Source: Dermatobacter hominis
GTDB taxonomy: Bacteria > Actinomycetota > Acidimicrobiia > Acidimicrobiales > Microtrichaceae
Assembly: GCF_020715685.1 (NCBI RefSeq)
Contig: NZ_CP085840.1
Span: 4,354,891-4,418,890, forward strand
Direction of reading: 5' to 3'
DNA length: 64,000 nucleotides
Made by a program: the position numbers and the translations under genes. The notes beneath the pieces were generated by a model that did no database searches, was not told the DNA's origin, and saw only the letters and a program-made list of their open reading frames with translations. Positions within the stretch are counted from its first letter, which is position 1; each line of letters starts with the position of its first letter. Of this stretch, positions 18,907 through 29,036 are shown one piece after another.

Positions 18907-19704
18907 TCAGCGGTCGCCGGCGACCCGCCGCCACAGCGGGCGGGGGAGCGCGCGGACCACGCCGAACAGCGGTCCGAGCACGCGGGGGACCGACGCGACG
19001 TCGCGCCGCGGGTCCTGCAGGGCCGCGACGGTCGCGCGGGCCACGGTCGCCGGGTCGGTGCTGAACGGCGCAGGATCGAGGCCGTCGGTCATCCGGGACC
19101 GGACGAAACCGGGCCGCACGACCAGGCACCGCACCCCGGTGCCGACCAGCGCGTCGGACAAGCCCTGCGCGAACACGTCGAGGCCCGCCTTCGTCGAGCC
19201 GTAGACGTAGTTGGAGCGGCGGGCCCGCAGCCCGGCGACCGACGACAGCACGACGATCGTCCCGTGGCCCTGCTCGACGAGGAACTGGCCGGCGGCGGCC
19301 AGGGCCGCGGCCGGCCCGGCGAAGTTCGTGCGGACCATGTGGTCGACGTCGACCGGCCCCATCGTCCGGCCGGCGTGGTGGCCGAGCAACCCCACGGCGC
19401 AGACGACGAGGTCGACCTGCCCGAGCGACCCGGCGGCGCGCTCGACCAGGGCGCGGTGGCCCTCGACCTCGAGCGCGTCCCAGGCCATCGACTCGGTGGT
19501 GAGCGCGGGCGCCGCGTCCGCCACGGCCCGCGCCGCGGCCTCGGGGTCGCGGGCCGCGAGGACGGCGGCGCGGAGCCCGTGCCGAGCGAGCTCGGCGAGC
19601 ACGGCCACGGCGATGTCGCTCGTGGCCCCGAGCACCAGGGCGGTGCGGGGGTGCTCGTTCAGCGAGCCGTGGGGCTCGTTCGGGTCGGGAGCGAGGTCGG
19701 CCAC
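18907..19704 (-). CDS. SDR-family oxidoreductase
   Basis: C-terminal 265 aa of ORF 18907..20484: ALVLGATSDIAVAV (Rossmann), NYVYGSTKAG (YxxxK). GTG at 19704 assumed; a GTG ~60 nt downstream (19641) would remove the overlap with the upstream MBL gene. Confidence 0.75.
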   Translation of the reverse strand: MADLAPDPNEPHGSLNEHPRTALVLGATSDIAVAVLAELARHGLRAAVLAARDPEAAARAVADAAPALTTESMAWDALEVEGHRALVERAAGSLGQVDLVVCAVGLLGHHAGRTMGPVDVDHMVRTNFAGPAAALAAAGQFLVEQGHGTIVVLSSVAGLRARRSNYVYGSTKAGLDVFAQGLSDALVGTGVRCLVVRPGFVRSRMTDGLDPAPFSTDPATVARATVAALQDPRRDVASVPRVLGPLFGVVRALPRPLWRRVAGDR

Positions 19705-20564
19705 GACCCGACGGTAGCCGGGGCGGTCTCGATCACCATCCCCCCGCGGGCCGCCACGACGTCGAGGTCGGCCCCGGCGAGGGCGGCGGCATCGCGCTCG
19801 ATCCGCTCGACCTCCTCGTCGGTCCGGGTCGGCCCGTGGTGGAACAGGACCAGCCGCTGCACCCCGGCGGCGCGGGCCAGCTCGATCGCCTGGTCCACCG
19901 TCGAGTGGCCGTAGCGCTGCGCCACCTCCGCCTCCGCCGAGGTGAACTGCGCGTCGTGCAGCAGCACGTCGCTGCCCTGGAGCCGGGCCACGAGCGTCGG
20001 GTCGGGACCGTCGGCGCGCGGGAGGTGGTCGGGGACGTACGCCACCGACCCGGCGCCCGGCTCCGCGATCCGGTAGCCGAAGGTGCGGCCGCCCTTGTGC
20101 GGGACCTCGAAGGCGTCGACGTCGAGGCCCTCGACGCGGTGGTGACCCGGTCCGATCCCGTGCCAGCGCCACGCGCCGAGGAGCCCGTCGGGGCCGATCG
20201 GGAAGTGCGGCGGCGACATCGCGCGCGCCATGACGTCGCGGGCGCACTCGCCCGTGCCGTCGTCGGGCGCCGGGAGGAGCACGTCGACCCGGGCATCGGC
20301 CCGGTCGCCCGCCGGCCAGAACGGCAGGCCGTGCGTGTGGTCCCAGTGCAGGTGCGTGAGCAGCACGGACCCACGGAACGGCGCGCCGCCCAGGAGCTGG
20401 CCCAGGCGTTGGAGGCCCGTACCGGCGTCGAGCACGACGGTCGGCGGTGCCGCGCCGTCGGTGCCCGCGCTGACGGCCACACACGAGGTGTGGCCGCCGA
20501 CGCCGGTGAACTCGGGACCGGGCGCCGGGGTCGAGCCCCGGACGCCGAGCAGGTGGATCCTCAA
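19659..20564 (-). CDS. MBL-fold metallo-hydrolase
   Basis: 301 aa; HLHWDHTHG (HxHxDH motif) plus downstream His/Asp ligands. Confidence 0.8.
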   Translation of the reverse strand: MRIHLLGVRGSTPAPGPEFTGVGGHTSCVAVSAGTDGAAPPTVVLDAGTGLQRLGQLLGGAPFRGSVLLTHLHWDHTHGLPFWPAGDRADARVDVLLPAPDDGTGECARDVMARAMSPPHFPIGPDGLLGAWRWHGIGPGHHRVEGLDVDAFEVPHKGGRTFGYRIAEPGAGSVAYVPDHLPRADGPDPTLVARLQGSDVLLHDAQFTSAEAEVAQRYGHSTVDQAIELARAAGVQRLVLFHHGPTRTDEEVERIERDAAALAGADLDVVAARGGMVIETAPATVGSWPTSLPTRTSPTAR

Positions 20565-21556
20565 GCGTCCTCCCGCCGGTGGCCAGCGGCGACCGCGGCC
20601 AGCGTCGAGCGGTCCAGGCGGTCCTCGGTCGTCACGGCCACCCTGATCCGGGTCCGGGCGTGCAGGGTGGAGGTCCGGCGGCCGTCCTCGAGCGAGGCGC
20701 GCTCGCCGACGATGGCGCCCGGGCCGACCTCGGCGATCGCCTCGCCGTCGACCTCGACGGCCAGCACGCCGTCGAGCAGGAGGTACACCTCGCCGTTGGC
20801 GCCGGCGCCCTGGCGGGTCAGGGTGGAGCCCGCCTCGATCGTCCGGACCTCGGGGCGGCCCCCGCCCATGATGTGCGAGGAGAGCTGGCGCTCCAGCGCC
20901 GTCTCCACCGCCGTCACCATCGCGGGCGTGTCACGGTCGCCCCACGGCGTGTGCGTGCCGAACGAGTGGCGGAACCACTCGTCGAAGTCGGCCAGCCCCG
21001 CCTTGGCGAAGAGCTCCATCTGGTCGTCGTAGACCCAGTGCCGGGGGAAGGTGCTGGCGCCGATGAGGTTGCGCTCGACCCGCCCGTCGGCGTGGATGAC
21101 CAGCTCCAGGGTCGTCCACACCGTCGGGGCCTCCCACTTCACGAACGGCGGGTGCGCCACCCGGCGGGGGCCGGGCAGGGCGGTGTGGCCGCCGGTCGTC
21201 TGCGTGAACCGCACGCTCGTGCCGCCGAGCTCCGGCTCGTTGCGGAGGTCGGGGAACGACACCGCTGCGAACGTGGCCGACCGCTTCCCGATGCGCACCG
21301 TGGTGGCGCCCATCAACCCGCCGCCGTCGTGGCCGGCGGCCACGATCCGACCGTCGACGACCTCCGCCCACGCCGACAGCCGGTTGCCGAACCGGAAGGC
21401 GTCGGCCTCCCGGAGGGCGTCGAGGTCGTCGACGTGGTCGGGGAGCGGGTCGTCGTAGTGGGTCACGCCGGAGGCGAACACCGCCTTGTTGATCGGGCCG
21501 GACACCGCCTCGGTGGGGATCCAGCTGAGCGAGGTGACGGACGATTCGATGCGCAT
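20561..21556 (-). CDS. protein with C-terminal cyclic-nucleotide-binding (cNMP) domain and uncharacterised ~230-aa N-terminal domain
   Basis: 331 aa; C-term GEVYLLLDGVLAVEVDGEAIAEVGPGAIVGERASLEDGRRTSTLHARTRIRV matches CAP/PKA-type cNMP-binding beta-roll (GE...R.A motif); N-terminal domain has no family I can name. Confidence 0.6.
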   Translation of the reverse strand: MRIESSVTSLSWIPTEAVSGPINKAVFASGVTHYDDPLPDHVDDLDALREADAFRFGNRLSAWAEVVDGRIVAAGHDGGGLMGATTVRIGKRSATFAAVSFPDLRNEPELGGTSVRFTQTTGGHTALPGPRRVAHPPFVKWEAPTVWTTLELVIHADGRVERNLIGASTFPRHWVYDDQMELFAKAGLADFDEWFRHSFGTHTPWGDRDTPAMVTAVETALERQLSSHIMGGGRPEVRTIEAGSTLTRQGAGANGEVYLLLDGVLAVEVDGEAIAEVGPGAIVGERASLEDGRRTSTLHARTRIRVAVTTEDRLDRSTLAAVAAGHRREDA

Positions 21557-21611
21557 CGGGGGCCTCCTGGGACTGCTGCGGGCGTGCGGGTGGTGGGTGG
21601 GGCGGACGGGC

Positions 21612-22439
21612 TCAGCCGACGGTGAACTCGCCGACCATCCCCTGCATGGCGTGGGGCATGCCCTCGGGCTCGGCGCCGGAGGTCATCATCTGCTCCATCG
21701 CCGCAGGGGTCATGCCGGTGGGGATGAAGCAGACGGCGATGTACCGGCCGTCGGTCGTGTCGAGCAGCGCGCCGCCCGAGCCGCCCGGCATGGCGAAGCC
21801 GCTGCTGAGGAACTCGACCTTCTCGCCGGCCTGCTCCTCGGGGAGCTGGATCAGCTCCTCGGCGCTCTCCGTGACGCCGTCCTTGGCCTTGGCGAACGCG
21901 ATCTCGTGGACCTCGTTGCCGTGGTTGGTGAGGCGGACGATCGTCCGGCCGGGCTTCGCCGTCTCGGGCAGGCCCTCGAAGGCGTACTCGTGGGCCTCCA
22001 CGTCGATGACCTGGTAGTCGCAGTTGTCGGCCATCCAGTCGACGAGGTCGGCGAACGACGAGAGGAACTCGTCCGACGGCGGGCCGGGGTTGGTGAACAT
22101 GGCCTCGGTCGCGTCGACGACGGCGGTGGCGGTGGCCTCGGCCTCGGCCGGGGCGGCCTCCTCGAGGGCGGTCAGCTCGGTCTTCGCCTTCTCGACGGCG
22201 GCCTCGTCGGGGCCCTGCTCACCGGCGCTGCTGTTCGCCGCGTTCACGGCGGCGTCGGTGGTGAAGGCCTGCTCGCAGAAGCCCTCGACCGACGCCGTGG
22301 CCGCCGTGGCCTCGGTCGTGGTGGTCGAATCGGCCTTCTCGTCGTCGCCGCAGGCCGCCAGGGGCAGCAGTGCGACGGTCGCGCCGAGCACGGCGGCCAC
22401 CGTGCGGGTGCGGGATCGGCGAGGGGTGCGTGCGCTCAT
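21612..22439 (-). CDS. Met-rich cupredoxin-like lipoprotein (paralogue of 1077..1607)
   Basis: ATG at 22439 within ORF 21612..23981; signal + lipobox LLPLAACGDDE; C-term HEYAFEGLPE...NEVHEIAF...GRYIAVCFIPTGMTPAAMEQMMTSGAEPEGMPHAMQGM aligns with the 1077..1607 protein (EYEWSGLPE...EAHEITIF...GEYEVVCFFP...HFGHGM); Met-rich stretch suggests Cu(I) handling. Confidence 0.6.
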   Translation of the reverse strand: MSARTPRRSRTRTVAAVLGATVALLPLAACGDDEKADSTTTTEATAATASVEGFCEQAFTTDAAVNAANSSAGEQGPDEAAVEKAKTELTALEEAAPAEAEATATAVVDATEAMFTNPGPPSDEFLSSFADLVDWMADNCDYQVIDVEAHEYAFEGLPETAKPGRTIVRLTNHGNEVHEIAFAKAKDGVTESAEELIQLPEEQAGEKVEFLSSGFAMPGGSGGALLDTTDGRYIAVCFIPTGMTPAAMEQMMTSGAEPEGMPHAMQGMVGEFTVG

Positions 22440-22625
22440 CTGGGTGTGTCTCCATCCGTCGTGGCCGCCTCGGTGCGGCCCTCGTGTTCGATGTGTCGAA
22501 CGTACGGGCGAGCACCGCTGCGGCGACACGGTGGAGGCGGGTGTCCTCGGGGGGTGCCAGCACCCCCGGCACGCTTCGTGGTGGACACCTTCCTGCGGAC
22601 CGCCCGGATCGGCTGAGATGTCAGG

Positions 22626-24023
22626 GTGGACCTGACCGAGACGGCCGATCACCCCGCCGCCGGCGCCGCCGACCCGGGCGACGCCGCCACCCGCGAGCGC
22701 GCCATCACCGTCCTGCTCGCGGACGACAACCTGATCGTGCGCGAGGGCGTTCGGGCGCTGCTCGGGCTCGAGGACGACATCGAGGTGGTCGGGGTCGCCG
22801 CCGACCTCGACGAGCTGGTGGCCACCGCCGACGAGCTGGTGCCCCAGGTCGTGGTGACCGACATCCGGATGCCGCCGAACTTCCAGGACGAGGGCATCGA
22901 GGGCGCCAAGGAGGTGCGCAAGCGCCACCCCGGCACCGGCATCGTGGTGCTGTCGCAGTACGACGAGCCCGAGTACGCGATCTCGCTGCTCGCCCAGGGC
23001 GCCGCGAGCTCGGCCTACCTGCTCAAGGACCGCATCGGCGACGGCAACCAGCTGGCCCGGGCGATCCGGGAGGTCGCGACCGGCGGCTCGATGCTCGACC
23101 CGCAGATCGTGCAGGCGCTGGTGGCGCCGGTGACCGACGAGGCCGCCCTGACGCCCGCCGAGGAGGCGCTGCTGCAGCAGGTCGCCGAGGGGCGTCCGGT
23201 CAAGGCGATCGCCGCTGCGACCTCGACCACCCCCGAGGCGGTGAACGACGCCGTCGAGGACCTCTTCCTCAAGCTGGCCCGCGGCGCGAGCGCCGGCCGT
23301 GTCGGCGCGCTGCGCCGGCTCCGGCTCCTCCAGAAGGCGATCATCGACCGCGAGGAGCAGGGCGAGACGCTCAGCCGGATGCTGCCGGGCGGCCTGGCCG
23401 ACAAGCTGCGCGAGGACGTCGGGGCCGCCGAGCGGACCGAGCGCCTGGACGTGACCGTCCTGATGTCGGACGTCCGCGGCTACTCCGCCATCGCCGAGCG
23501 GACGGACCCGACCGTGCTCGCCGGGCAGCTCGACGAACACCGGGCGGCCATGAACGACGCGATCCTCGCCCAGAGCGGGACCGTGATGCAGTACGTCGGC
23601 GACGCGGTGATGGCCGTGTTCGGCGCCCCGTTCCCCGTCGACGACCACGCCGGGGCCGCCGTGCGGGCCGCCGTCGCGATGCACGAGCGCCAGCAGGCGA
23701 TCGACGAGCGCTGGTCCGGCGAGGGTCGAGCGCCGTTCGGGCTCGGGATCGGGCTGTCGACCGGCGAGGTCGCCGCTGCGATGCTGGGCAGCGAGGAGCG
23801 CTACGAGTACACCCTCGTCGGCGACACGGTGAACCTGGCGCAGCGGCTCCAGGACCTCGCCCGGCCCGCCGGGACGACGGTGCTGAGCGACGCGACCCGG
23901 GTCGCCGTCGCGGGTGACTGGACCACGGAGGAGCTCCCGGTCCAGCGGGTCAAGGGACGGGACGCACCGGTGCGGTGCCACCGTCTCGTCGGGGCGGTGG
24001 ACCGGATCACGGAGGTGCGGTGA
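22626..24023 (+). CDS. response regulator fusion: REC + LuxR-type HTH + class III adenylate/guanylate cyclase domain
   Basis: 465 aa; REC: ITVLLADDNLIVREGV...VVVTDIRMPP (phospho-Asp context); HTH: LTPAEEALLQQVAEGRPVKAIAAATSTTPEAVNDAVEDLFLKL; cyclase: VTVLMSDVRGYS...QYVGDAVMAVFGAP...GLGIGLSTGEV...TLVGDTVNLAQRLQ (metal Asp residues and catalytic Asn/Arg region present). Confidence 0.8.
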   Translation: MDLTETADHPAAGAADPGDAATRERAITVLLADDNLIVREGVRALLGLEDDIEVVGVAADLDELVATADELVPQVVVTDIRMPPNFQDEGIEGAKEVRKRHPGTGIVVLSQYDEPEYAISLLAQGAASSAYLLKDRIGDGNQLARAIREVATGGSMLDPQIVQALVAPVTDEAALTPAEEALLQQVAEGRPVKAIAAATSTTPEAVNDAVEDLFLKLARGASAGRVGALRRLRLLQKAIIDREEQGETLSRMLPGGLADKLREDVGAAERTERLDVTVLMSDVRGYSAIAERTDPTVLAGQLDEHRAAMNDAILAQSGTVMQYVGDAVMAVFGAPFPVDDHAGAAVRAAVAMHERQQAIDERWSGEGRAPFGLGIGLSTGEVAAAMLGSEERYEYTLVGDTVNLAQRLQDLARPAGTTVLSDATRVAVAGDWTTEELPVQRVKGRDAPVRCHRLVGAVDRITEVR

Positions 24024-24772
24024 TGAGCGAGACGTTGGTGGAGGGTGCGGAGGACGACGGCGTCGCCCGCCCGGGGTCGACCGGGCCGGCGGTGCTGACC
24101 GTGCGCGGCGTGCGCCGGACCTTCGAGGCCGAGCTCGCGCCCGTCCGGGCCCTGCGCGGCGTCGACGTCCAGGTGGCCGCCGGCGAGTTCGTCGGGGTGA
24201 TGGGGCCCTCGGGCTGCGGCAAGTCCACGCTGCTCAACCTCGTCGCGGGGCTCGACATCGCGGACGAGGGCACGATCCTGATCGGCGACGAGGAGATCAC
24301 CGGCCGGGACGAGGACTGGCTCGCCCGCATGCGTCGCCGCCACATCGGGATCGTCTTCCAGTTCTTCAACCTGCTCGAGGGCATGACGGCGCTCGAGAAC
24401 GTCGTGCTGCCCGCGGTCATCTCCGGTCGCATGAAGCGGCGGGCGGCCGAGAGCCGGGCCCGTGACCTCCTCGACCTGCTCGGGCTCGGCGACAAGACCG
24501 GCGAGGTGCCGGCGGTCCTCTCGGGCGGTCAGCGGCAGCGACTCGCGATCGCACGGGCGCTCGCCAACGAGCCGACGCTGCTGCTCGCCGACGAGCCGAC
24601 CGGCGCCCTCGACAGCGACGGCGGGCGCGAGGTGCTCGAGCTCTTCCGGCGCCTCCACGACGAGGGCCAGACGATCATCATGGTGACGCACTCCGCCGAC
24701 GTCGCCAGCGGCTCGGACCGCGTCCTGCACATGCGCGACGGCCGCATCGAGCGCGAGGAGGTGCCGTCCTGA
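24023..24772 (+). CDS. ABC transporter ATP-binding protein (MacB/LolD-like), no cognate permease adjacent
   Basis: 249 aa; Walker A GPSGCGKSTLLNLVAGLD, signature LSGGQRQRLAIARAL, Walker B LLLADEPTGALD; start overlaps upstream stop by 1 nt. Confidence 0.9.
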   Translation: MSETLVEGAEDDGVARPGSTGPAVLTVRGVRRTFEAELAPVRALRGVDVQVAAGEFVGVMGPSGCGKSTLLNLVAGLDIADEGTILIGDEEITGRDEDWLARMRRRHIGIVFQFFNLLEGMTALENVVLPAVISGRMKRRAAESRARDLLDLLGLGDKTGEVPAVLSGGQRQRLAIARALANEPTLLLADEPTGALDSDGGREVLELFRRLHDEGQTIIMVTHSADVASGSDRVLHMRDGRIEREEVPS

Positions 24773-24876
24773 CCACCTCCGCCGTCACCGAGCGCTCGCC
24801 GCACCCGAGCCGCGCTGCGACGGTCGAGGCCGCGCCCGCGACGTCGACGTCGCCGGCCCGGGTCGCGGCCACGGCG

Positions 24877-26895
24877 GTGCTGGCGGTCGTCGCCGTGGCG
24901 CTGGCCGTGGTCGCCGCGACCCGGCTCGACGTCGAGGGCCGCGTCGCCGCCGGCGTCATCGGCGCCTGGGCCGCGCTCGGCCTCTGGACGGCGCTGCGCC
25001 GGCCGGCGGAGCCGGTCGGGCTCCTGGCCGTCGCAGCCTCGATGGTGGGGGCGGCCACGCTGCTCGCCCTCTCCGACGACGGATCCGACGTGGCCGAGGT
25101 CGTCGTGGCGCTCAGCCAGGCGATCGGACCCGCACTGCTGTTCCAGCTCGCGTCCTCGCTGCCGACGGGCCGGCTCGCCCGGCGGCCGCGCCACCGCACC
25201 GCCGTGATCGTGGCCTGGGCCTCCGCCGCCGTCGTGGCCGTGGTCGGCGTGGCGGCGCGCCCCGATCCGCCCGTCGCCCTGATCGTCGCGTGGCTCGCGG
25301 TGCTCGGCGTCGCTGCGCTCGTCCTCTTCGTGACGACCTGCCGCCGGGCGGGGCCGCGTGACCGGGCGCGCCTGCAGTGGGACGGCTGGGGCGTGCTCGT
25401 GGCCGCCACCGTCGCGCTGGCGGCGTGGGCGCTCGACGCCCTCACCGGGTGGCCCGCGACGCCGTCGCTGGTGGCGGCCGTCGCCACCGTGGCGGTGCCC
25501 GTCGGGTTCCTGGCCGCGACGTCCGAGCCGGCCCTGGCACGGGTGGACCGGGTGCTCGTCCACACCATCGTGACCATCGGGCTCGTGGCGCTCGTGGTGT
25601 GCGTCTACGTCGTGGTCGTCCTGGGCCTCCAGGGCACGCCGAGCGACGAGGCCCGGTCGGTCCTCGGGCTGTCGCTCGTCGCCGCTGCGATCGCGGCGGC
25701 GCTGAGCTTCCCGGCGCGCCGTCGCCTCGAGGAGTTCGCCAACCAGCGCGTCTACGGCGAGCGCAGCGCGCCCGACGAGGCGCTGCGCACATTCGCCACC
25801 CGCATGTCGCGCTCCGTGCCGATGGACGAGCTCCTGCGCCAGCTGGCCGAATCGCTGCGGAAGTCGATGGGCGTGGCCCGCGCCGAGGTCTGGACCGGTA
25901 CGAGCGGCCACCTCGAACGACAGGTCTCGGTGCCCGATGCGGGTGCGGCCGAGGTGACGCTCGAGGGCGAGGAGCTCGCGGTCGCCAGCCGCACCCACGT
26001 CGCGGGCAACGGCTGGTTGGCCGTGTGGATCCCGGCACTGCTGGCCGGGCGCGGCGACCGGGTGCTGCGCGTGGCCCCGGTGGCGCACCTCGGCGAGCTG
26101 CTGGGCCTGCTCGTCGTGGAGCGGACCCAGGAGGACACGGCCTTCGACGAGGAGGACGACCGGGTGCTCGCGGACCTGGCCCGCCAGGTGGGCCTGGCGC
26201 TGCACAACGTCCGCCTGGACTCGGCGCTGCAGGACAGCCTCGAGCAGCTCCAGCTGCGCAACGAGCAGCTGGTCGCCTCGCGCGCCCGCATCGTGTCGGC
26301 CGCCGACGAGTCCCGGCGGGCGATCGAGCGCAACCTCCACGACGGCGCCCAGCAGCACCTGGTCGCGATGGCGGTGAAGGTCGGCCTCGTCCGCCAGGTC
26401 ATGGCGAAGGACCCGGACGCCGCCTCGGCGATGCTCGAGGAGCTGCGCGAGGACGTGCAGGTCACCGTCGGGGAGCTGCGGGAGCTGGCCCACGGCATCT
26501 ACCCGCCGCTGCTCCGCGACCGGGGCCTGCCCGAGGCGCTCCGCACCGCCGCCAACCGGGCCGCGCTCCCGACCGACGTGGTCGTCGCCGAGGACCTCGG
26601 CCGGTTCCCGACCGACCTCGAGGCCGCCGTCTACTTCTGCTGCCTCGAGGCCATGCAGAACGCCGGCAAGCACGCCGGCGAGGGCGCCGAGGTCACCGTG
26701 ACGATCGTCCGCGCCGACCACGAGCTGCGCTTCGCCGTGGCCGACGACGGCGTGGGCTTCGTCGTCGGCGACCGCCCCGAGGGCCACGGCTTCGTGAACA
26801 TGGAGGACCGGCTCGGCGCCATGGGCGGCCGCCTCGAGGTCGAGTCGGCCCCCGGCCGGGGCACGACGGTCCGCGGCACGATCCCGATCGACTGA
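24877..26895 (+). CDS. polytopic membrane sensor histidine kinase (multi-TM N-term, GAF-like, HisKA_3, HATPase_c)
   Basis: 672 aa; ~300 aa N-terminal region with >=7 hydrophobic segments; HisKA_3 box RRAIERNLHDGAQQHLVAMAV; HATPase FCCLEAMQNAGKHAGE...DDGVGF...GHGFVNMEDRLGAMGGRLEVESAPGRGTTV. Start may lie further upstream (to 24769). Confidence 0.85.
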   Translation: MLAVVAVALAVVAATRLDVEGRVAAGVIGAWAALGLWTALRRPAEPVGLLAVAASMVGAATLLALSDDGSDVAEVVVALSQAIGPALLFQLASSLPTGRLARRPRHRTAVIVAWASAAVVAVVGVAARPDPPVALIVAWLAVLGVAALVLFVTTCRRAGPRDRARLQWDGWGVLVAATVALAAWALDALTGWPATPSLVAAVATVAVPVGFLAATSEPALARVDRVLVHTIVTIGLVALVVCVYVVVVLGLQGTPSDEARSVLGLSLVAAAIAAALSFPARRRLEEFANQRVYGERSAPDEALRTFATRMSRSVPMDELLRQLAESLRKSMGVARAEVWTGTSGHLERQVSVPDAGAAEVTLEGEELAVASRTHVAGNGWLAVWIPALLAGRGDRVLRVAPVAHLGELLGLLVVERTQEDTAFDEEDDRVLADLARQVGLALHNVRLDSALQDSLEQLQLRNEQLVASRARIVSAADESRRAIERNLHDGAQQHLVAMAVKVGLVRQVMAKDPDAASAMLEELREDVQVTVGELRELAHGIYPPLLRDRGLPEALRTAANRAALPTDVVVAEDLGRFPTDLEAAVYFCCLEAMQNAGKHAGEGAEVTVTIVRADHELRFAVADDGVGFVVGDRPEGHGFVNMEDRLGAMGGRLEVESAPGRGTTVRGTIPID

Positions 26896-26946
26896 CCGCC
26901 GCCCCCCGACCCGTCGGCTGGGACCGGACGGGTCCCGTCCGGTCCG

Positions 26947-27369
26947 TCAGGAGGGGGCGTGCTCGTCCCAGACCTCGCGGAGCACGTCGGGGGACAGGTC
27001 CTCCTTGTGCACGTACCGGCGGGCCCCGCAGCTGCCGGCGTCGGCCGGCAGGTCCTCGGCCGTGTAGGTCGACATCAGCACCACCACCGTGTCGGGCGCG
27101 GCCTCGACGATCCGGCGGGTGGCCTCGATCCCGTTGATGCCCGGGAGGTTGATGTCCATGAGCACGAGGTCCGGTCGGGCGTCGGCCGCTCGGCCGACGG
27201 CGTCCTCGCCGGACTCGGCCTCGGCCACGACGGCGAACCCGTCGGCCAGCAGGACCACCGTGCGGGCGGTCGAGCGGAAGGTCGCCTGGTCGTCGACGAT
27301 CATCACGCCGACGTCGGTCGTCGGGGCGGGCTCAACGTCGATGTCGCGGTCCTCCTGCGTGCACGTCAC
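26947..27369 (-). CDS. stand-alone response-regulator receiver (REC) domain protein
   Basis: 140 aa; VMIVDDQATFRS...DLVLMDINLPGINGIEATRRIVEAAPDTVVVLMSTY; no output domain. Confidence 0.75.
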   Translation of the reverse strand: MTCTQEDRDIDVEPAPTTDVGVMIVDDQATFRSTARTVVLLADGFAVVAEAESGEDAVGRAADARPDLVLMDINLPGINGIEATRRIVEAAPDTVVVLMSTYTAEDLPADAGSCGARRYVHKEDLSPDVLREVWDEHAPS

Positions 27370-27466
27370 GACAGTAGGTTCGCGTCGTCACGGCCGGGTG
27401 CACATGGTGCAACCCGGTGGCGTGCCGGGGGTGCTGGCACCCCGCCCGATCCGGGTGGGCCGGCGA

Positions 27467-28135
27467 TCAGCCGCCCTGGTCCGCCAGGTACAGCAGGACG
27501 GCCTTCACACGGCGGTGCACGTCGGGCTCCGCGCCGAGCCCGAGCTTGGCGAACAGCGAGTTGATGTGCTTCTCGACCGCCCGTTCCGACAGCACGAGGG
27601 CCTCGGCCACCGCGGCGTTGTTCTTGCCCTGGGCGATCTCGGCGAGCACCTCGGTCTCGCGGGGCGTGAGGTCCCGCAGCGGCGACGCGGCCGAGCGGCT
27701 GCGGCCCGCGACCAGCGAGTCGACGACCTGCGGGTCGACCACCGAGCCGCCGTTCGCGACCTGGCGGATCGCGGCCATCAGGTGGTCCGGCTCCGAGATC
27801 CGCTCCTTGAGCAGGTAGGCCCGGCCGCGCGACCCCTGGTCGAGCAGGTCGACCGCGTACGCCGGCTCCACGTACTGCGAGAGCACGACCACGCCGGTTT
27901 CGGGCGCCGTCTCCCGGAGGGCGGTGGCGAACCGGATGCCCTCGTCGGTGCCGGTCGGCGGCATCCGGATGTCGGTGAGGACGACGTCGGGTCGGTGCTC
28001 CTCGACCGCCGCGTTGAGCTGGTCGAGGTCCTCGCACAGGGCGGCGACCTCGATGTCGTCCTGTGCGGCCAGCACCGCGGCGAGGCCCTCACGGACCAGC
28101 ATCGAGTCCTCCGCCACCACGACCCGGATCGCCAT
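27467..28135 (-). CDS. NarL/FixJ-family response regulator (REC + LuxR HTH)
   Basis: ATG at 28135 within ORF 27467..28927; IRVVVAEDSMLVREGLAAVLAAQDDIEVAALCEDLDQL...VVLTDIRMPP...LTPRETEVLAEIAQGKNNAAVAEALVLSERAVEKHINSLFAKLGL. REC domain is a close paralogue of the REC of the cyclase fusion at 22626. Confidence 0.9.
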   Translation of the reverse strand: MAIRVVVAEDSMLVREGLAAVLAAQDDIEVAALCEDLDQLNAAVEEHRPDVVLTDIRMPPTGTDEGIRFATALRETAPETGVVVLSQYVEPAYAVDLLDQGSRGRAYLLKERISEPDHLMAAIRQVANGGSVVDPQVVDSLVAGRSRSAASPLRDLTPRETEVLAEIAQGKNNAAVAEALVLSERAVEKHINSLFAKLGLGAEPDVHRRVKAVLLYLADQGG

Positions 28136-28190
28136 GGCGGGCGAGGATACTCGGGTCACGATCCGGCCTCGCCGCCCGTACGGTGTCGCC

Positions 28191-29036
28191 GTGACCCCCC
28201 GATCCGTCCGACTCATCGCGTGCGACATGGACGGGACGCTGCTCGGCGCCGACGGACTCGTCTCGGCACGCAACGGGGCGGCGCTCGCCGCTGCGCGCGA
28301 CGCCGGCATCGCCGTGGCGGTGGCCACCGGCCGGTCCCACCAGACCGCGCTGCGCCGACTGGGCGACGCCACCGCGATCGAGTGGGCGATCTGCTCGAAC
28401 GGCGCGCTCGAGATGGAGGTCGCCACCCGGCGCACCACCCGCGTCGACCCGCTGCCGGCGGCGGTCGTCGACGACGTCGTCGCCGAACTGGCCGCGCTCG
28501 ACGGCGTCGCGTACGCGTGGGAGGACGTCGAGCTCGGCCTCCGCTGCTCTCCCGAGTTCCTGCGCCGCCACCCGAGCATCGAGTCGGTCGTCGTGGACGA
28601 GGTGCCGGCGCCGACGTACCCCTCCGGGCCCCAGATCAAGATCATGGTCTCGCTGGCCGACCGGGTCCGCCTGGCCGCGGTCGAGGCCGTCTCGCCGCTG
28701 CTGCCCGACGGGGTCGAGGTGGCCACGTCGGGCTCGTTGTTCACGGAGCTGACCGCCCACGGCGTCGACAAGGCCTTCGGCGTCGCGCACCTGGCCGACC
28801 GGCTCGGGATCGACCGGTCCGAGGTGCTCGCGTTCGGCGACAACCACAACGACGTGCCGATGCTGCGCTGGGCCGGCACCGCCGTCGCCATGGGCAACGC
28901 GGACCCAACGGCGCTGGCCGTGACCACCGAGCGGACGCTGCGCCACGACGAGGACGGCGTCGCCGCCTACGTCGAGGCGGTGCTCGATCGGAAACCCGGT
29001 GGCGACGACCTCGATCCCGCGACGATCCTGCCGTGA
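28191..29036 (+). CDS. Cof-type HAD-IIB family hydrolase
   Basis: GTG at 28191 within ORF 27924..29036; IACDMDGTLL (DxDGT motif I), GDNHNDVPML (motif IV). Confidence 0.8.
   Translation: MTPRSVRLIACDMDGTLLGADGLVSARNGAALAAARDAGIAVAVATGRSHQTALRRLGDATAIEWAICSNGALEMEVATRRTTRVDPLPAAVVDDVVAELAALDGVAYAWEDVELGLRCSPEFLRRHPSIESVVVDEVPAPTYPSGPQIKIMVSLADRVRLAAVEAVSPLLPDGVEVATSGSLFTELTAHGVDKAFGVAHLADRLGIDRSEVLAFGDNHNDVPMLRWAGTAVAMGNADPTALAVTTERTLRHDEDGVAAYVEAVLDRKPGGDDLDPATILP

Follow-up and report, generated by a model that had tools for sequence, protein, structure and literature searches.

A window of 64,000 nucleotides from the genome of Dermatobacter hominis, a member of the Acidimicrobiales (Acidimicrobiia; family Iamiaceae) (contig NZ_CP085840.1, positions 4,354,891 to 4,418,890 of the forward strand) carries, at positions 19659-28135 of the window, a gene cluster that probably constitutes a conserved cyclic-nucleotide signalling module, which is driven by a two-component system and possesses a receptor of its own. 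The module includes a fusion protein of 465 aa (22626-24023, plus strand), in which a response-regulator receiver, a degenerate LuxR-type four-helix domain and a helical linker precede a class III nucleotide cyclase domain, as well as a divergently encoded protein that binds cyclic nucleoside monophosphates (cNMPs). An earlier reading of the same DNA, hereafter the first-pass annotation, had seen here a self-contained second-messenger circuit that could not be matched to a described system, and this view is strengthened by the conserved synteny of the module in two phyla and by the invariance of the catalytic residues of the cyclase. As well, our literature searches on receiver-LuxR-cyclase proteins and on cyclic AMP (cAMP) signalling in Acidimicrobiia found neither the architecture nor the module described.

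Genes were selected by third-position GC and confirmed with Pfam and NCBIfam, given the many spurious open reading frames at the G+C content of the window (about 73%). All elements named in the first-pass annotation were recovered at the coordinates given there, and the cluster was found to extend beyond the 22626-28135 first assigned to it and to include a gene for a hydrolase of the metallo-beta-lactamase (MBL) fold. The plus-strand arm comprises the genes of the fusion protein, of a MacB/LolD/DevA-type ABC ATPase (24023-24772) and of a sensor histidine kinase of 672 aa (24877-26895). Divergent from it, the minus-strand arm comprises the genes of a lipoprotein (21612-22439), of the cNMP-binding protein, which is the candidate receptor or effector (20561-21556), and of the MBL-fold hydrolase (19659-20564). 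Convergent to the plus-strand arm, and also on the minus strand, lie the genes of a canonical NarL-type regulator (27467-28135) and then of a single-domain receiver (26947-27369).

The receiver-cyclase fusion protein

The fusion protein begins with a receiver of the NarL/FixJ type (Response_reg, residues 29-134, 57.7 bits in Pfam). In an alignment of 60 orthologues, from which the residue conservation of this protein was taken throughout, every sequence has D79, S110 and K134, 58 have D33 and 59 have D34; the acidic pocket, the phospho-acceptor Asp, the Ser/Thr and the Lys of such receivers are all present. The fusion protein is 48.8% identical over 201 aa to the NarL-type regulator encoded at 27467-28135, and the relationship is still visible in the DNA as an inverted repeat of 198 nt with 74% complementarity, in agreement with the close paralogy that had been proposed for the receiver domain.

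The C-terminal part of the protein is a Guanylate_cyc domain (PF00211, residues 275-446) with a score of 65.7 bits against a gathering score of 21.9, and its closest solved relatives are Cya2 (2w01, E=1e-24) and CyaB (3r5g). The metal-binding residues D282 and D326, which had already been noticed in the first-pass annotation, are invariant in the 60 orthologues together with the transition-state residues N403 and R407 and with K443, and a C-terminal Lys-Gly-Arg motif is invariant or nearly so. The alignment places these catalytic residues as in Cya2, CyaB, CyaC and the rhodopsin guanylyl cyclase RhGC, and no loss of a catalytic residue was seen.

The residues that distinguish adenylyl from guanylyl cyclases, whose inspection had been proposed earlier, assign no product. 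Q322, which is present in 59 of the 60 orthologues, aligns with Lys of CyaB and with Glu of Cya2 and RhGC, and residue 396, which is Thr in 36 orthologues and Ser in 24 (the latter mostly from loci labelled Dormibacterota), stands where CyaB has Thr, Cya2 has Gly and RhGC has Cys. The pair is thus Gln-Thr/Ser and matches neither the canonical pairs for ATP (Lys-Asp or Lys-Thr) nor those for GTP (Glu-Cys/Gly/Ser). We consider cAMP the most likely product, and the Gln-Thr/Ser pair makes cyclic GMP (cGMP) or a mixture of products possible.

The same substitutions might also mean that the cyclase is weak or inactive, in which case the domain would provide a nucleotide-binding or scaffolding output and the cNMP-binding protein would read a cNMP made elsewhere. 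Such a reading draws on Q322 in the place of the Lys and on T/S396 in the place of an Asp, and we consider it very unlikely, as the metal Asp pair, the Asn, the Arg and the Lys-Gly-Arg motif form a pattern that suits a working enzyme, and as the alignment shows Thr at the second specificity position to be the usual residue of class IIIb adenylyl cyclases, CyaB among them. Moreover, the mycobacterial cyclase Rv0386, which has a Gln-Asn pair, is reported to work as an adenylyl cyclase and to show guanylyl activity on the side, as cited in two publications (PMC3466318; bioRxiv 10.1101/2024.03.06.583649).

Between the two domains, the protein had been described as carrying a LuxR helix-turn-helix, through which phosphorylation could control DNA binding in addition to cNMP synthesis. 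Residues 27-218 align end to end with the NCBIfam models MctR, MadR and NarL and with DevR (3c3w), NarL (1a04) and VraR in the PDB, and the four-helix domain is therefore regarded as homologous to the LuxR-type helix-turn-helix. Its hydrophobic core (L175, L182, L183, V186, A187, G189, I195, and A196) is kept as well. However, the GerE match stays below the Pfam gathering score (15.8 bits, E=0.011, against 23.5), and a recognisable GerE domain with its DNA-contact residues, as in NarL/FixJ regulators, is not found in the fusion protein. The recognition helix of the fusion family reads T-P-[EAT]-[AS]-V-[NAG]-[DA]-[DA]-[VI]-E and has a net negative charge; K189, H190 and N192, which are invariant in the family of the NarL paralogue, are replaced by D/A, D/A and E, and the mean net charge of the helix-turn-helix is about -2.5, compared with +0.5 in that family. 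The architecture described in the first-pass annotation holds for the receiver and the cyclase domain, whereas its middle part is homologous to LuxR domains but degenerate.

A bifunctional protein, in which phosphorylation would trigger both sequence-specific DNA binding and cNMP synthesis, would account for the homology and the preserved core of the four-helix domain, and a conserved inverted repeat, which is treated below, lies upstream of its own operon. The loss of the contact residues and the acidic character of the region speak against the DNA-binding half of the proposal, and the nearby canonical NarL regulator is a simpler candidate for the operator, so that we regard a bifunctional fusion protein as unlikely.

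The helical linker points to another use of this region. Residues 241-256, with the almost invariant sequence D-R-E-E-Q-G-E-[TS]-L-S-R-[ML]-L-P-G-G, are the best-conserved stretch of the protein, and in phmmer comparisons residues 235-275 line up with the helical segment in front of the cyclase domain of natriuretic-peptide receptor guanylyl cyclase and, likewise, of soluble guanylyl cyclase and mammalian adenylyl cyclases. In class III cyclases, dimeric sensors at the N-terminus are coupled to the catalytic dimer by this segment, which is known as the cyclase-transducer element. As far as can be judged from sequence, the four-helix domain and the linker are more likely a recycled dimerisation and transducer unit than a DNA binder.

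The candidate receptor and the conserved neighbourhood

The candidate receptor carries a cNMP_binding domain at residues 238-314 (Pfam), whose cyclic-nucleotide-binding (CNB) fold is intact and includes a phosphate-binding cassette (GERASLEDGRRTST) with the conserved Glu and Arg. The Arg-Thr of this cassette presumably resembles PKG-type sites, which gives a hint only. The N-terminal 230 residues had no credible family match in Pfam (E up to 10) and none in NCBIfam. As a fold search with the full model was dominated by CNB matches, this N-domain was modelled alone; it is predicted to be all-beta, and its sole fold match in a PDB-based search is one solved protein without an assigned function. 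A literature search on BAS0735/3C5P found nothing relevant.

An exhaustive phmmer search returned homologues of the N-domain in 1,220 clusters at 50% identity. Among the best 150 of these 1,220 clusters, many represent proteins of about 330 aa that consist of the N-domain and one CNB domain; the rest are mostly shorter and apparently partial, and a few are longer, having either two CNB domains or an additional domain at the C-terminus. The invariant polar residues of the N-domain (E16, H33, D35, D52, R55, N58, Q119, R131, R172, and H173) would fit an active site or a ligand site.

The association of receptor and cyclase was followed across genomes. A scan of one genome per species gave 70 loci, 68 of which encode orthologues of the fusion protein (61-89% identity), 65 of them at full length. 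The 68 loci come from Acidimicrobiia (Microthrixaceae and others) and from many independent metagenome-assembled genomes of Candidatus Dormibacterota. In addition, the best 120 database clusters for the fusion protein are all at least 71% identical to it and all have a receiver (REC) and a cyclase homology domain (CHD). The neighbourhoods were surveyed by tblastn of the window proteins against the loci, and many gene absences in this survey fall at contig ends. The cNMP-binding gene accompanies the cyclase gene in 57 of the 65 full-length loci and lies, in most of these 57, in divergent orientation 110-310 bp from the cyclase start; among the other eight loci, six extend no more than about 1.6 kb upstream. 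A kinase gene is present downstream of the cyclase gene in 50 of the 65 loci, a single-receiver gene in 38 and a NarL gene in 35. The conserved core of the module consists of receptor, cyclase, one or more kinases, single receiver and NarL regulator.

With the receptor gene kept beside the cyclase gene in this way in two phyla, the genes are not neighbours by chance, which the first-pass annotation had named as the alternative. The annotation had also placed the cNMP-binding gene directly upstream of the cyclase gene; it is indeed divergent and nearby, but the gene of a 275-aa lipoprotein stands between the two in D. hominis. Between D. hominis and locus L002, all six genes compared have ratios of nonsynonymous to synonymous substitution rates (dN/dS) of 0.15-0.24, indicating purifying selection.

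The Dormibacterota loci contain one to four tandem kinase paralogues and have neither the ABC ATPase gene nor the MBL gene. The identity between the window and these loci (L018-L066) is 63-70% for the cyclase, about 48-60% for the receptor, about 61% for the NarL regulator and about 35% for the kinase, and the sharing of the five-gene core with Dormibacterota suggests either horizontal transfer of the module or an unusually strong constraint. Where a locus has two cyclase genes, it also holds two receptor genes (L010, L012, and L013). Paired duplicates of cyclase and receptor were observed in the Microthrixaceae loci L010, L012, L013, L059 and L068, and their closeness to each other implies that the cyclase-receptor pair was duplicated as a unit. 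As a separate observation, genes for a GAF-GGDEF-EAL protein (L020:1366-3684, minus strand, and the corresponding place in other loci of the phylum) and for a methylmalonyl-CoA mutase are found in Dormibacterota at a distance of a few kb upstream from the receptor gene, which makes the module there a neighbour of a gene for cyclic di-GMP (c-di-GMP) turnover.

A pair of genes for a cyclase of the class III fold and for a CNB protein follows the same two-gene logic as Pycsar anti-phage systems, whose cyclases share the class III catalytic motifs (PMC11224242). A system of the Pycsar or Pucsar kind would make a cyclic mononucleotide upon infection, and its CNB effector would arrest or kill the cell. 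PADLOC models of PycC do match the cyclase domain (up to 73 bits), PycTIR models weakly match the CNB domain, and the purine-specifying pair is non-canonical; however, none of the matches goes beyond the cyclase and CNB domains, which are generic, and the Pycsar specificity residues (PMC11224242) could not be mapped onto this cyclase by sequence. The candidate effector differs from those of Pycsar in having no TIR domain (Pfam) and no hydrophobic or transmembrane segments, and the module has a two-component input. Its synteny in 68 species-level genomes of two phyla is also unlike the patchy distribution of defence islands, and all of its genes are under ordinary purifying selection. The genes that flank the cluster encode an MFS transporter, an M50 protease, a YaaA homologue, a HAD hydrolase, an SPFH protein and beta-lactamase-fold proteins, i.e., they are unrelated genes of the housekeeping type and not defence genes. 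An anti-phage role is, in our view, highly improbable.

The minus-strand arm continues with the MBL-fold metallo-hydrolase, a Lactamase_B_2 protein (PF12706, 82 bits) in which the HxHxDH motif is present as HLHWDHTHG. The start codon of its gene overlaps the stop codon of the receptor gene. The branch of the MBL superfamily to which it belongs is one of phosphodiesterases. Its match to NF041851, 'cyclic nucleotide-degrading phosphodiesterase', is weak, with 47.5 bits where the cut-off is 400, and models of RNase Z match it similarly or better, on the C-terminal half only. The gene adjoins the cNMP-binding gene in 25 loci of the Acidimicrobiia type. Because of its translational coupling to the receptor gene, the hydrolase is a plausible candidate for a cNMP phosphodiesterase that resets the signal.

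The lipoprotein (275 aa, lipobox LAAC) is found between the receptor and cyclase genes in only seven loci, has no family match in NCBIfam and no credible one in Pfam (E up to 10), and probably stands outside the core module. Its Met-rich C-terminus, MTPAAMEQMM...GMPHAMQGM, is reminiscent of Cu(I)-binding Met motifs, and a weak paralogue (32% identity) is encoded at about 1083-1427 on the minus strand.

Kinase, receivers and a shared inverted repeat

The kinase has about eight to nine hydrophobic segments in residues 1-281, before a GAF domain (31.6 bits), and ends with HisKA_3 (50.3 bits) and HATPase_c (44.9 bits) domains, which make it a histidine kinase of the HisKA_3 type (all scores from Pfam). 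The polytopic N-terminal region has no credible family match in Pfam (E up to 10). The notion that this membrane domain is the remnant of a lost permease was rejected, since it aligns over its full length with the orthologous kinases of permease-bearing loci. A cNMP-binding GAF domain, which would place the kinase in a feedback loop, was also considered; GAF domains that bind cNMPs carry an NKFDE signature, and at its position the GAF domain of the kinase reads, by eye, 'ER...FDEED'.

The regulator encoded at 27467-28135 (minus strand) belongs to the NarL/FixJ family, with Response_reg (62 bits) and GerE (49.5 bits) domains and with matches to the MadR, MctR and NarL models at E values down to 1e-32. 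Its recognition helix, [ST]-E-R-A-V-E-K-H-I-N, and the residues R185, K189, H190, N192 and K197 are kept in 36-37 of 37 orthologues. The protein is the candidate for the transcriptional output and for an autoregulator of the cluster. The single-domain receiver at 26947-27369 (minus strand; Response_reg, 81 bits) has a complete phospho-acceptor pocket.

The first-pass annotation had considered it plausible that one kinase feeds all three receivers. The specificity between kinase and regulator is usually set by positions in receiver helix 1, as known from work on Spo0F/Spo0B and HK853/RR468. These positions read [I/L]-V-G-A-L in the fusion protein, L-[L/V]-G-[Q/R/A]-L in the NarL regulator and P-F-[V/A]-T-V in the single receiver. 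The similarity of the first two makes it plausible that the fusion protein and the NarL regulator share one kinase, and to this extent the proposal stands; it is weaker for the single receiver, whose helix 1 differs and which may be served by another route or act as a phosphate sink.

The cyclase operon and the single-receiver gene are each preceded by a 24-nt sequence, GGGGTGCCAGCACCCCCGGCACGC, which occurs exactly twice in the window and has as its core the inverted repeat GGGGTGC-CA-GCACCCC. The first copy (22551-22574, plus strand) lies 52-75 nt upstream of the cyclase start codon and is 100% complementary to the second (27420-27443, minus strand), which has the same orientation and precedes the start codon of the single receiver by 51-74 nt. 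Conserved blocks were seen in an alignment of 41 receptor-cyclase intergenic regions, and, in both phyla, orthologous loci contain analogous GGTG-N-CACC repeats whose position is fixed. Upstream of the cyclase gene, GGTG-N1-8-CACC is present at the fixed position in 24 of 42 regions, compared with 9.5% of random windows from the same loci, and of the 39 sequences upstream of the single-receiver gene (from 38 loci and the window), 29 contain an equivalent inverted repeat. An RNA element or riboswitch upstream of the cyclase gene was rejected, as Rfam gave no meaningful match for 21400-22800 and the folding z-score of 0.52 is no better than that of shuffled sequences. With the RNA reading lacking such support, a DNA operator is preferred, and the 24-nt element may serve as the operator for a dimeric factor, for which the NarL regulator of the cluster itself would be the simplest candidate.

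The ABC ATPase gene overlaps the cyclase stop codon with its ATG (TGATG) and is thereby coupled to it. The encoded ABC_tran protein has a complete set of motifs, i.e., GPSGCGKST (Walker A), LSGGQRQR (signature), LLLADEPT (Walker B) and VTHS (H-loop), and matches models of MacB, DevA and LolD at E values of 1e-58 to 1e-63. No FtsX permease was found in the 64-kb window by tblastn with two permeases from orthologous loci as queries, so that the orphan status first ascribed to the ATPase is true within the window. It reflects, however, a lineage-specific loss: in relatives, FtsX-domain permeases of about 800 aa, one to three in tandem, come after the ATPase or are encoded close by (L005, L007, L009-L011, L013, L014, L016, L030, L033 and others), whereas D. 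hominis and L002 have none between ATPase and kinase. Their ATPase is under purifying selection (dN/dS 0.17).

Such a linkage of transporter and kinase, for which Bce-like systems offer an analogy, raises the question of whether the core of the cluster is an envelope-stress or export module formed by the kinase, the NarL regulator and a MacB/FtsX transporter, to which the cyclase-receptor pair would be a secondary addition. The translational coupling of the ATPase to the cyclase gene and the presence of permeases with the ATPase between cyclase and kinase, or close to them, in many Acidimicrobiia loci would suit this proposal. The Dormibacterota, however, have neither ATPase nor permeases and yet keep cyclase, receptor, one or more kinases, single receiver and NarL regulator, and D. 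hominis and L002, without a permease, keep everything else under purifying selection. We therefore consider an export core to be quite unlikely and regard the transporter as an accessory part, because the rest of the module is kept where the transporter genes are absent.

Proposed mechanism and known counterparts

In the mechanism that we propose for the two-component-driven cyclic-nucleotide module, the polytopic GAF/HisKA_3 kinase would sense a membrane or envelope cue and phosphorylate the two paralogous NarL-type receivers. One of them, the NarL factor, would probably bind the shared inverted repeat before the cyclase operon and before the single-receiver gene. The other is joined through the degenerate four-helix domain and the transducer-like helical linker to the class III cyclase domain, and its phosphorylation may induce dimerisation of the receiver/four-helix unit, which would align two cyclase domains into an active homodimer. 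The product, most likely cAMP and possibly cGMP or a mixture, would be read by the divergently encoded receptor, whose C-terminal CNB domain would gate the N-terminal beta-domain. In Acidimicrobiia, the presumably co-transcribed MBL hydrolase would likely end the signal as a phosphodiesterase, and the single-domain receiver would probably modulate the phosphate flux.

Several points weigh against this mechanism. The output domain of the receptor matches no family of assigned function, and the Lys that specifies the substrate is a Gln in 59 of the 60 cyclase orthologues, by which activity and product become uncertain. Only 24 of the 42 regions upstream of the cyclase gene contain the inverted repeat in its strict form. 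Furthermore, given the differing specificity residues of the single receiver and the multiple kinases of Dormibacterota, a more complex wiring is possible. A more unusual pathway, possible but doubtful, would combine an exapted LuxR transducer with a Gln-Thr/Ser cyclase that makes a nucleotide other than cAMP or additional to it (cGMP or a cyclic pyrimidine) and with a beta-domain of new activity; in the same pathway, the paralogous NarL regulator, acting on the shared 24-nt operator, would complete a feedback loop at the level of transcription.

Compared with known systems, the module is built from familiar domain types with one exception; what is unfamiliar is the way they are combined, as well as the recycling of the helix-turn-helix, the Gln-Thr/Ser pair and the receptor with its orphan fold. 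The fusion protein resembles receiver-regulated class III cyclases, such as cyanobacterial CyaC or the REC-CHD proteins that appear in censuses of response regulators, in that the cyclase domain, which has to dimerise, is placed under a phospho-accepting receiver within one polypeptide, and it shares with the CyaB/CyaC type the Thr at the second specificity position (class IIIb pattern in the alignment). It differs from the CyaC type in the degenerate LuxR-type domain between receiver and cyclase and in the Gln in place of Lys. CyaC is a hybrid kinase-cyclase, whereas the fusion protein is a stand-alone response regulator encoded beside a paralogous NarL factor. When compared with the regulators NarL, DosR and VraR, its residues 27-218 align over the whole length and share the acidic pocket, the Ser and the Lys, but the helix-turn-helix is without DNA-contact residues and its last helix runs into the cyclase domain.

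For the receptor, the known counterparts are Rv0998, the cAMP-gated acetyltransferase of M. tuberculosis, and PKA/PKG modules, from which it differs in that the partner of its CNB domain is an all-beta domain without a family. The ATPase is of the type found in MacB/FtsX transporters linked to HisKA_3 systems, and in relatives of D. hominis the permeases of about 800 aa stand beside the kinase; the window has no permease, and the Dormibacterota versions of the module have no transporter.

Cyclase domains were previously combined with a LuxR helix-turn-helix in the mycobacterial proteins Rv0386, Rv1358 and Rv2488c, in which both are in one polypeptide (PMC3466318). Rv0386 also has a Gln at the Lys position, as in the fusion protein. 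Proteins of this type have an N-terminal cyclase domain, a large ATPase/TPR region, a recognisable C-terminal LuxR domain and no receiver, and the order of domains in the fusion protein is the opposite. The combination of CHD and LuxR in Actinobacteria was reported to be restricted to Mycobacterium (PMC3466318), and REC-LuxR-CHD is not among the domain abbreviations in the legend of Figure 1 of that paper (PMC3466318).

The module is of interest because it is complete on paper, with a sensor kinase, a cyclase that would be activated by phosphorylation, a dedicated receptor and a probable phosphodiesterase, and because it is apparently chromosomal and confined to poorly studied lineages of soil and sludge (Acidimicrobiia and Dormibacterota). 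Cyclic-nucleotide signalling in bacteria is known mainly from CRP-type transcription factors, from a few mycobacterial effectors and, recently, from anti-phage systems. The module could show how a receiver drives a class III cyclase through a recycled helix-turn-helix domain and what a Gln-Thr/Ser cyclase makes, and it could reveal the role of the widespread family of N-domain plus CNB proteins (about 1,200 clusters at 50% identity, with no annotation). Since D. hominis is in culture, the system is accessible to experiments.

Finally, scans of 19400-28400 for sigma-70 promoters and intrinsic terminators found nothing, a result that is uninformative in a high-GC genome (74%). A GC-rich palindrome, GTCGGCCCCCGGCCGGGGCACGAC, is located at 26844-26867 near the 3' end of the kinase gene, with no T-tract after it and just before the convergent gap of 52 bp to the single-receiver gene, where it could be a bidirectional terminator.

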